Shown in pieces: positions 1 through 373 of a stretch of DNA of 396 nucleotides; position 1 is the first letter of the stretch; each line of letters opens with the position of its first letter. Source of the DNA: Escherichia coli (lineage in GTDB: Bacteria > Pseudomonadota > Gammaproteobacteria > Enterobacterales > Enterobacteriaceae); NCBI RefSeq assembly GCF_003334255.1, contig NZ_QOWU01000247.1. One strand, written 5' to 3'. Position numbers and translations under genes: made by a program. The notes under the pieces are model-generated. The model was not told the origin of the DNA, did not search any database, and saw only the letters and a list, made by a program, of their open reading frames with translations.

Positions 1-373
1 CGCTAAACCGGGCAACGGGGTGAGGATTGCCCGATCTGCTGTTGCGTTTCGTTTCTGCCGAATTTGCGCAGTTTTTTGCGCATTTTTCATCACTGCCATC
101 ATCGCCGTAAGACTCGTCATTACTGGACTCGTCATCAGCTCCATGCGCATTTTTTTGTGCGCTTTTTTGAGTGTCAATTTGCGCACTTTTTTGCGCATTT
201 TTCTGCGCACTTTCCTCTGTATTTTTGGGGGAGTTTTTGCGCAGTTTTATGTACCGACGAGCCGTGCCATAGCAGATATTGTTCTGTCGACACCAGTCCT
301 GAAGTTTTATGCCAGTTCTGGCATGTTCGCGTCGGAATGCCTGCTCCAGTTTTTTCCAGTCCAGCTTTGCCAT
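1..373 (-). CDS. Partial CDS (N-terminal 124 codons; 3' end runs past position 1): small HTH-type DNA-binding protein with low-complexity basic/acidic linker; candidate phage or island small terminase subunit (TerS-like)
   Basis: Manual reverse-strand translation from ATG (complement of 371..373) gives 124 codons with no stop: MAKLDWKKLEQAFRREHARTGIKLQDWCRQNNICYGTARRYIKLRKNSPKNTEESAQKNAQKSAQIDTQKSAQKNAHGADDESSNDESYGDDGSDEKCAKNCANSAETKRNSRSGNPHPVARFS. Residues ~20-43 fit a helix-turn-helix pattern (helix, N-I-C-Y-G turn, TARRYIK helix). Codon choice (CTG Leu, AAA Lys, GCG/GCA Ala, CGC Arg) looks like a real enterobacterial-type gene. The frame is also open upstream of the ATG to the window edge, so the true start could lie beyond 396. 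The terminase assignment rests on remembered similarity only. Confidence 0.6.
   Translation of the reverse strand, partial: MAKLDWKKLEQAFRREHARTGIKLQDWCRQNNICYGTARRYIKLRKNSPKNTEESAQKNAQKSAQIDTQKSAQKNAHGADDESSNDESYGDDGSDEKCAKNCANSAETKRNSRSGNPHPVARFS
65..88. repeat. Two tandem units of palindromic hexamer TGCGCA followed by a T5-6 run (12-bp period)
   Basis: TGCGCA at 65..70 and 77..82, each followed by a T-run (72..77, 83..87). Read directly from the sequence. Confidence 0.85.
111..135. repeat. Exact 10-bp direct repeat GACTCGTCAT x2 with 15-bp period
   Basis: GACTCGTCAT at 111..120 and 126..135. The period is 5 codons, in frame with the minus-strand CDS, and encodes the duplicated D-E-S in the acidic segment (DDESSNDESY). 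Confidence 0.9.
144..250. repeat. Degenerate array of (T/G)GCGCA hexamers each followed by a T-run, about 11-13 bp period
   Basis: TGCGCA at 144..149, 180..185, 192..197, 204..209, 238..243, plus variant GTGCGC at 157..162. T-runs at 150..156, 163..168, 187..192, 198..202, 211..213, 222..226, 234..238, 245..248. A specific hexamer is expected about 0.1 times in 400 bp; 7 exact copies are seen across this array and the one at 65..88. Confidence 0.85.
309..324. repeat. Inverted repeat ATGCCAG-tt-CTGGCAT (7-bp arms, 2-bp spacer)
   Basis: 309..315 ATGCCAG is the reverse complement of 318..324 CTGGCAT. It lies inside the region coding the HTH-like N-terminus. Function unknown; a 7-bp inverted repeat in 400 bp could arise by chance. 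Confidence 0.5.

Follow-up and report, generated by a model that had tools for sequence, protein, structure and literature searches.

We show here that a 396-nt stretch of Escherichia coli DNA (contig NZ_QOWU01000247.1 of assembly GCF_003334255.1; this whole stretch is called the window below) carries a dense array of the palindromic hexamer TGCGCA inside the 5' part of terS, which homology and gene order identify as the small terminase gene of a 933W-like E. coli prophage. Statistically the array is extreme; it is upheld at the level of DNA, persists in distant relatives and co-varies with the recognition helix of the encoded protein. Arguing from comparative sequence evidence, we consider it most likely (probability roughly 0.7) that the array is the packaging (pac) recognition site of a headful phage and that it is built like the pac site of phage P1, with the predicted curvature of the DNA as an accessory. 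A preceding sequence-only reading had noticed phased T/A-tracts in this region and proposed a bent pac or recognition site, with P22, SPP1 and Sf6 as precedents, if the gene were a small terminase. It had overlooked that TGCGCA alternates with every T-run. As a candidate pac or recognition site the region has become a very good one on comparative evidence, whereas the curvature-based, P22/Sf6-like interpretation is not supported in the form proposed.

The gene lies on the minus strand. Its ATG at 373-371 opens a reading frame of 283 codons, and by translation codons 1-124 of these fall inside the window (1-373; full gene L001:4522-5373). Seven exact TGCGCA copies and one copy matching at five of six positions (TGCGCT) are packed into 179 bp, at terS nt 131-309, in two clusters. 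The left, gene-proximal cluster (144-243) contains exact copies at 238-243 in codon phase 1 (the only one in this phase, Leu-Arg-Lys) and at 204-209, 192-197, 180-185 and 144-149, all four in phase 2 (x-Ala-Gln/His). Inspection of the sequence adds the TGCGCT copy at 158-163, and on the coding strand spacers of A5-7 separate the hexamers of this cluster. The right, gene-distal cluster (65-82) is a pair at 77-82 and 65-70, both in phase 0 (Cys-Ala), that is kept in 933W-type genes. A first-order Markov model predicts 0.08 copies per 180 nt, compared to the seven observed. Escherichia phage PhiR12_3 contains the window at 100% identity (PV340552.1, 30591-30986), and its whole 62-kb genome has 32 copies of TGCGCA where 27 are expected. 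Hence, the excess is purely local to the array, which is the densest hexamer cluster of that genome, one tandem repeat excepted.

It could be argued that the hexamers are a by-product of the peptide that they encode, a low-complexity linker rich in Lys, Gln, Asn and Ala (SAQKNAQKSAQ...) that grows by 12-nt slippage and has no function at the DNA level. Residues 45-141 of the protein are indeed predicted to be disordered, Tandem Repeats Finder (TRF) detects repeat periods of 12 and 24 nt in the array, relatives differ by 12-nt indels, and a predicted curvature of 52-60 deg survives synonymous resampling. However, slippage in steps of 12 nt preserves codon phase and the copies occupy all three phases, so that slippage cannot explain the array. 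Moreover, when the protein was held fixed and its codons were resampled synonymously, about 1.0-1.15 TGCGCA were expected and only 0 or 1 of 20000 resamples reached seven (p <=5e-5). The observations on relatives described next speak in the same direction: the hexamer outlasts amino acid changes, is enriched 54-fold, recurs in unrelated protein backbones and covaries with the recognition helix. Thus, a by-product of linker growth is a very unlikely explanation.

A scan of IMG/VR recovered 72 loci of the same TerS family. Relatives with only 57-65% protein identity carry 4-7 TGCGCA copies at gene nt 130-305, spaced by 10-14 bp and again distributed over all three codon phases. The hexamer is kept while the encoded residues change (LRK to MRR, SAQ to VRK), and the spacers diverge and gain indels. 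Among 62 unique IMG/VR loci, the density of TGCGCA is 19.3 per kb in gene nt 100-420 compared to 0.36 per kb elsewhere, which is the 54-fold enrichment mentioned above. Across loci, neighboring hexamers are mostly spaced by 9-15 bp, most often by 12 and next by 14, 10, 9 and 7, hence about one helical turn, and next to the hexamers the coding strand is rich in A on either side. The layout in two clusters is found in relatives as well, for example with 6+3 copies in locus L083 and 5+3 in L137. Furthermore, the N-terminal module (...DWC..GLNYATARRYIK) occurs together with the TGCGCA array in small terminases with unrelated C-terminal cores, namely those of E. coli phage 606R9, Klebsiella phage 5 LV-2017, Vibrio phage douglas 12A4 and Aeromonas phage phiARM81mr. 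The recognition-helix pattern has at least 600 matching stretches in IMG/VR. We used tblastn to look for the ARRY form of this cassette in a well-studied model phage and obtained only poorly characterized prophages and phages, with the exception of phage D6, a relative of P1 and the sole match linked to a well-studied phage.

The hexamer changes with the helix that presumably reads it. We compiled a census of 175 unique 5' regions and grouped them by four residues of the recognition helix. Regions with the helix A-R-R-Y (n=76) contain on average 6.20 TGCGCA, 0.14 TGCGAA/TTCGCA and 0.09 GATCAT/ATGATC, and the corresponding means for A-R-R-H (n=8) are 6.12, 0.25 and 0.00. With A-K-R-Y (n=74) the preference moves to TGCGAA/TTCGCA (mean 6.09, next to 0.09 TGCGCA and 0.03 GATCAT/ATGATC). 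The A-R-T-R helix of the 933W type (n=16) goes along with a mean of 4.06 GATCAT/ATGATC, 1.88 TGCGCA and 0.81 TGCGAA/TTCGCA. The helices YATARRYIK and YATAKRYIK differ solely by Arg or Lys, yet they are paired with different hexamers, and the AKRY/TGCGAA pairing is found in two backbones, those of Klebsiella RothD and Yersinia vB_YenM_30.14. This pairing of helix and hexamer is as predicted by a direct readout through a helix-turn-helix (HTH) domain. Genes of the 933W type combine the helix YNTARTRIK with a left cluster of 4-5 (C/T)GATCAT units at 12 bp and keep the TGCGCA pair on the right. In 933W (L002) these GATCAT and TGCGCA sites occupy terS nt 142-183 and 235-264, respectively, and the same arrangement is seen in L005, L023 and L027; in 933W itself one site of the right pair has decayed to TGTGCA. 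Helix and left cluster are together spanned by the block in which the window differs from a 933W-type gene, and the window is thus a specificity-cassette variant.

We give about even odds to a more far-reaching proposal, according to which the HTH domain and the hexamer array that follows it would form a portable and self-contained packaging-specificity cassette that is shared with PacA of P1, has been joined to three or more unrelated terminase cores and follows the code ARRY/TGCGCA, AKRY/TGCGAA and ARTR/GATCAT. Many hundreds of prophages may carry such a cassette, in Escherichia (Shiga toxin (Stx) phages included) as well as in Klebsiella, Yersinia, Vibrio and Aeromonas.

An AlphaFold2 model of TerS, built on a 14-sequence alignment, shows three N-terminal helices at residues 6-20, 24-30 and 35-41 (predicted local distance difference test score, pLDDT, 73-85), a stretch from residue 45 to 141 that is predicted to be disordered (pLDDT <50) and a long coiled coil at residues 145-251. 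The three-helix domain (residues 6-41; window 251-358, minus strand) is tentatively assigned as HTH from the model, from the alignment with PacA and from a weak match of the N-terminal profile to the N-terminal HTH of the IS5376 transposase (8q4d, E 0.025). A Foldseek search of the TerS model against the PDB returned generic coiled-coil hairpins only, none of them at E <=0.001. The third helix, YGTARRY at residues 35-41 (251-271, minus strand), is the presumed recognition helix. Behind it begins the predicted disordered linker (1-241, minus strand), which is marked by indels and rapid change between the conserved hexamers in the alignment in addition to its low pLDDT. Since the linker peptide is weakly constrained, there is room for a DNA-level signal in the segment of the hexamer array (codons 44-104), and on this model the position directly after the recognition helix would be a sensible place for it.

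The closest established precedent is the pac site of P1, and not those of P22 and Sf6 favored by the sequence-only reading. P1 pac is a segment of 161 bp within pacA that comprises seven hexamers (HEX4 and HEX3) and an IHF site and is under Dam control (PMC10028697, which sums up the classical work of Sternberg and Coulby 1987-88 and Skorupski et al. 1994). Synonymous mutation of hexamers reduces P1 packaging about 9-fold (PMC10028697). In the annotated P1 genome we located TGATC(A/G) at pacA nt 194, 201, 213 and 228 and at nt 324, 336, 347 and 375; the clusters of four and three hexamers (pacA nt 194-233 and 324-352) enclose the IHF site (256-268) and the cleavage region (276-285). The window shares with P1 an array in the 5' part of the gene for the recognition subunit, after the HTH segment (nt 194-352 in P1, nt 131-309 in the window). 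It likewise shares the use of one hexamer in two clusters that lie 60-90 bp apart (4+3 in P1, 5(+1)+2 in the window), and in both genes the hexamers stand in more than one codon phase. The N-terminal domains of the two proteins show weak homology: PacA, which belongs to PHROG 1711 (E 4e-202), cross-matches PHROG 370, the family of the window TerS, with residues 3-104 at E 1.9e-4, the window TerS cross-matches PHROG 1711 at E 1.6e-4, and a pairwise comparison of both proteins (E 4e-4) includes the motif NTARRY(L/I).

On this basis we infer that TerS binds the array, that binding serves packaging, and that curvature assists in it. The T-runs would be the spacers of eight short putative protein-binding sites that lie mostly 12 bp apart. 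Several HTH domains of one TerS oligomer would each read one hexamer, about one helical turn from the next, and the A-tract spacers with their period of 11.5-11.75 bp might pre-bend or writhe the DNA to follow the surface of the oligomer, as in SF6/SPP1 (PMC4737164). TerL would then cut nearby, by analogy with P1 probably in the 61-bp gap between the two clusters (83-143), which makes this gap a candidate cleavage region, and headful packaging would proceed from there. Within the gap the 10-mer GACTCGTCAT occurs twice as a perfect direct repeat, at 111-120 and 126-135 (coding strand ATGACGAGTC) with 15 bp from copy to copy, in the part that corresponds to the IHF site and cleavage region of P1. 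Another element, GCAGAAACGAAACG (peptide AETKR; window 40-58, terS nt 316-334), follows just after the last hexamer. It includes two tandem copies of the pentamer GAAAC, and in the family alignment its DNA sequence hardly varies down to relatives of 57% identity.

What had been noticed before the hexamers were the T-runs and the bending expected from them. The ten listed run centers (74.5, 85, 153, 165.5, 189.5, 200, 212, 224, 236 and 246.5) were all exact, and the one spacing of about 24 bp noted among them is filled by an unlisted T3 run at 179. A second missing T3 run, at 64, extends the first cluster, and the extent of 72-248 proposed originally is nearly right, the whole feature being slightly wider (63-248). 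Counting runs of at least 3 nt, the phased T-runs (plus strand; A-runs on the coding strand) lie at 63-65, 72-77, 83-87, 150-156, 163-168, 178-180, 187-192, 198-202, 211-213, 222-226, 234-238 and 245-248. Their number is ordinary: nine runs of at least 4 nt compare to 6.7 expected, and 186 of 2000 shuffles that preserve dinucleotide composition reach nine. Their phasing is not random. The Fourier power of the T-run indicator (60-250) is maximal at 11.5-11.75 bp, a value reached by none of 2000 dinucleotide shuffles. At the helical repeat of 10.5 bp, to which the runs had been thought to be close, the power is ordinary (315/2000 shuffles reach it). The period mirrors the 12-nt unit of four codons mixed with 10.5-nt steps. 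With such a period successive bends fall out of phase, and the path expected for the DNA is therefore superhelical rather than planar.

Curvature was predicted with our own wedge-model script using the Bolshoy-Trifonov, AA-wedge and De Santis parameters. The controls behaved as expected: A6 tracts at a spacing of 10.5 bp were predicted to curve by 72-85 deg per 31 bp, at 12 bp by 47-52 deg and at 15 bp by 4.5-6.4 deg, and random sequence did not exceed 22-26 deg. Near 73, 188 and 234 the predicted curvature of the window amounts to 57-71 deg per 31 bp, with a maximum that no more than 3 of 500 shuffles attain. In the 61,979-bp genome of PhiR12_3 the peaks at about 73 and 188 rank first and second (AA-wedge, Trifonov) or first and fourth (De Santis). 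Hence, all three wedge models agree with the proposed intrinsic curvature, which they predict to be strong and top-ranked in the phage genome. After synonymous resampling of terS 52-60 deg are kept, compared to 68 deg observed (p 0.02-0.09), which indicates that the Lys/Asn/Gln/Glu-rich peptide and the hexamers jointly account for most of the predicted curvature.

Could the terminase simply select a static A-tract bend without reading any sequence, as has been proposed for SPP1/SF6? The rank of the curvature peaks in the genome and the AT-runs of the SF6 pac site (PMC4737164) are in favor of this idea, and 74% of the ARRY loci and 100% of the 933W-type loci exceed their own 99th curvature percentile. 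Only 25-34% of the ARRH and AKRY loci do so, however, which is about chance level. Predicted curvature is at background in five loci with full hexamer arrays (L060, L062, L064, L068 and L077) and also in most loci of the AKRY and ARRH classes, whose arrays are likewise complete. In addition, the period of 11.5-11.75 bp is not the 10.5 bp that planar bending would call for, and a hexamer that is kept to the letter but changes along with one helix residue points to direct readout of the sequence. Selection of the bend alone is therefore unlikely. The A/T-tracts are not the primary element that they had been taken for, since relatives always keep the hexamer and do not always keep the curvature. 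Predicted curvature, extreme as it is in the window, is, judged from these comparisons, an accessory feature and not the conserved signal.

Palindromes that are separated by T-runs also bear on RNA structure. On the plus strand, antisense to terS, the window contains six hairpins between 65 and 233 that resemble intrinsic terminators, where 0.7 are expected; they consist of neighboring TGCGCA palindromes with T-runs as loops and tails and are probably a geometric by-product of the array. These sites, and the finding that both strands fold better than shuffled sequences (z -4.5 and -3.9), would be expected if the palindromes acted as RNA, either as antisense terminators or as mRNA structures modulating terS translation. 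A repeated GC-rich palindrome, however, gives rise to terminator-like sites and to such fold scores automatically. The stems are only 6-7 bp long, the hexamer is invariant rather than covarying, and an Rfam search of the window at a permissive threshold gave no match. Relatives that keep the hexamers have lost the T-runs needed for termination, and the TGCGAA of the AKRY class is not even palindromic. We regard a function at the RNA level as highly improbable. A role of TGCGCA or its GCGC core as restriction or methylation site was considered as well and rejected; the phage record annotates only an adenine methyltransferase, and E. coli is not known to have a GCGC methylase.

The assignment of the gene rests on homology and on its neighborhood. 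The terS product matches PHROG 370, terminase small subunit, over residues 1-283 in a profile search (E 7.4e-118). The gene overlapping terS by 20 nt encodes the large terminase TerL (PHROG 2, E 5e-52), the portal gene follows next after it (PHROG 156, E 1e-252), and lysis genes lie upstream of terS in the annotation of L001. The proposal of a pac site had been tied to the gene being a small terminase, and the PHROG 370 match together with the TerL and portal neighbors bears this out. In the literature, 933W-type terminases are treated as headful packaging enzymes (PMC6029569). Pfam gave no significant domain in TerS or TerL, and NCBIfam no match for either protein. An open reading frame of 121 codons on the plus strand (20-385) was rejected as a gene, being a mirror of terS without support of its own; it is rich in Phe, Leu and Cys because it is the complement of Lys, Glu, Gln and Ala codons. 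Identical copies of the window are also present in prophages of several E. coli chromosomes, and relatives of it were found in 429 of 5426 complete E. coli genomes. In three IMG/VR loci (L075, L076, L078) terS diverges or stops after about residue 120-137, the match ending at 137-138, and L078 has an in-frame stop in terS; such copies might belong to prophages in decay, or they might mark recombination junctions close behind the array.

Elsewhere in the PhiR12_3 genome (L079), at 21501-22081, we noted a perfect tandem array of 83 copies of GACCAGC (100% matches). It underlies a coding sequence with the annotation EmrB/QacA-like transporter, directly behind the gene for antiterminator Q, and is followed by a BcgI-alpha-like restriction/modification gene at 22172-24133. 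In Stx phages the toxin genes sit just downstream of Q. The GACCAGC array may be a genuine repeat of the contingency type or may have arisen in the assembly as an artefact.

Several points weigh against a P1-like pac site. TerS is only weakly homologous to PacA (E about 1e-4), and only over some 100 N-terminal residues, the C-terminal parts being unrelated. The hexamer is TGCGCA instead of TGATCA/G, and by our reading of the sequence there is no GATC in window 60-250, so control by Dam methylation cannot operate in this array. The IHF consensus WATCARNNNNTTR has no match with up to one mismatch, although this was a consensus scan only, which weak sites could escape. Thus, two hallmarks of P1 pac, GATC and an IHF consensus, are absent. 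The counts that connect helix and hexamer ignore shared ancestry, and the mixture of GATCAT and TGCGCA in 933W-type genes does not fit a simple model of one helix and one hexamer. Neither a mapped pac site nor mapped ends for 933W-like or Stx phages were found in the openly accessible literature. Finally, binding of TerS to the array could serve autoregulation instead of packaging, acting on transcription or translation of the late or terminase operon. A sigma-70-like promoter, TTGACA-17-AAAAAT with 10 of 12 matches, does lie inside the array in sense direction (177 to 149, minus strand). Its -35 element is not conserved even in a relative that is 94% identical (L009), the array is inside a coding region and far from the late promoter, and the homologous array of P1 is a proven pac site (PMC10028697). 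We therefore judge autoregulation to be quite unlikely and prefer recognition of the array for packaging. Reports of TGCGCA arrays in terminase genes were not found in the openly accessible literature either.

If the array is the pac site, several consequences follow. The family of 933W-like phages carries most Shiga toxin genes. Most headful phages lack a described pac site, and that of ES18 is stated explicitly to be unknown. A pac site at this position would make the start of lateral or generalized transduction predictable in lysogens of Shiga toxin-producing and other E. coli. It would also allow packageable plasmids or packaging-deficient helper phages to be constructed, the latter by synonymous recoding as for P1, and would offer a direct test of how specificity arises from a ring of weak HTH domains. 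The step from Arg to Lys that accompanies the change from TGCGCA to TGCGAA is an apparent switch of one residue and one base, and thus a compact and falsifiable recognition rule. Should the cassette code hold, one could predict a pac site by reading the sequence and reprogram packaging specificity by exchanging one residue together with the hexamers.

The counterpart of the window gene in 933W is L0112, with which it shares 75% protein identity, the gene order and the right-hand TGCGCA pair. The differences are the helix YNTARTRIK and the left units of 933W, which contain GATC and resemble the hexamers of P1. In the cosB site of phage lambda the repeats R1-R3 are bound by the winged HTH of gpNu1 and the DNA is bent by IHF. 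Repeated sites for the small subunit next to the cut site and DNA bending as a cofactor would be common to both systems; in contrast, lambda is a cos phage with fixed ends, and its 16-bp sites lie upstream of the gene, whereas the hexamers of the window lie inside it. In SPP1/SF6, intrinsically bent pac DNA is bound by a ring of small-terminase HTH domains, and in SF6 pac runs of 5-7 AT pairs are interspersed with GC and recognition is reported to be largely independent of sequence (PMC4737164). The window resembles these phages in AT runs of 5-7 bp among GC, in predicted bending, in sites about one helical turn apart and in the (here predicted) succession of an N-terminal HTH and an oligomerization domain. 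We detected no protein homology between the window TerS and the proteins of SPP1/SF6, and the hexamer of the window, unlike SF6 pac, shows strict conservation and a switch that goes with one helix residue. Compared to P1, the space between the clusters has no IHF consensus and A-tract spacers with predicted curvature take its place, and both the coiled-coil C-terminus of TerS (PHROG 370) and TerL are unrelated to the C-terminus of PacA and to PacB. Thus, as a candidate pac site the array is of a known kind, the hexamer-repeat pac inside the gene of the recognition subunit established for P1, and what is new in the window is the other hexamer, the absence of methylation control, the predicted intrinsic bending in place of an IHF site and the other terminase to which it belongs.

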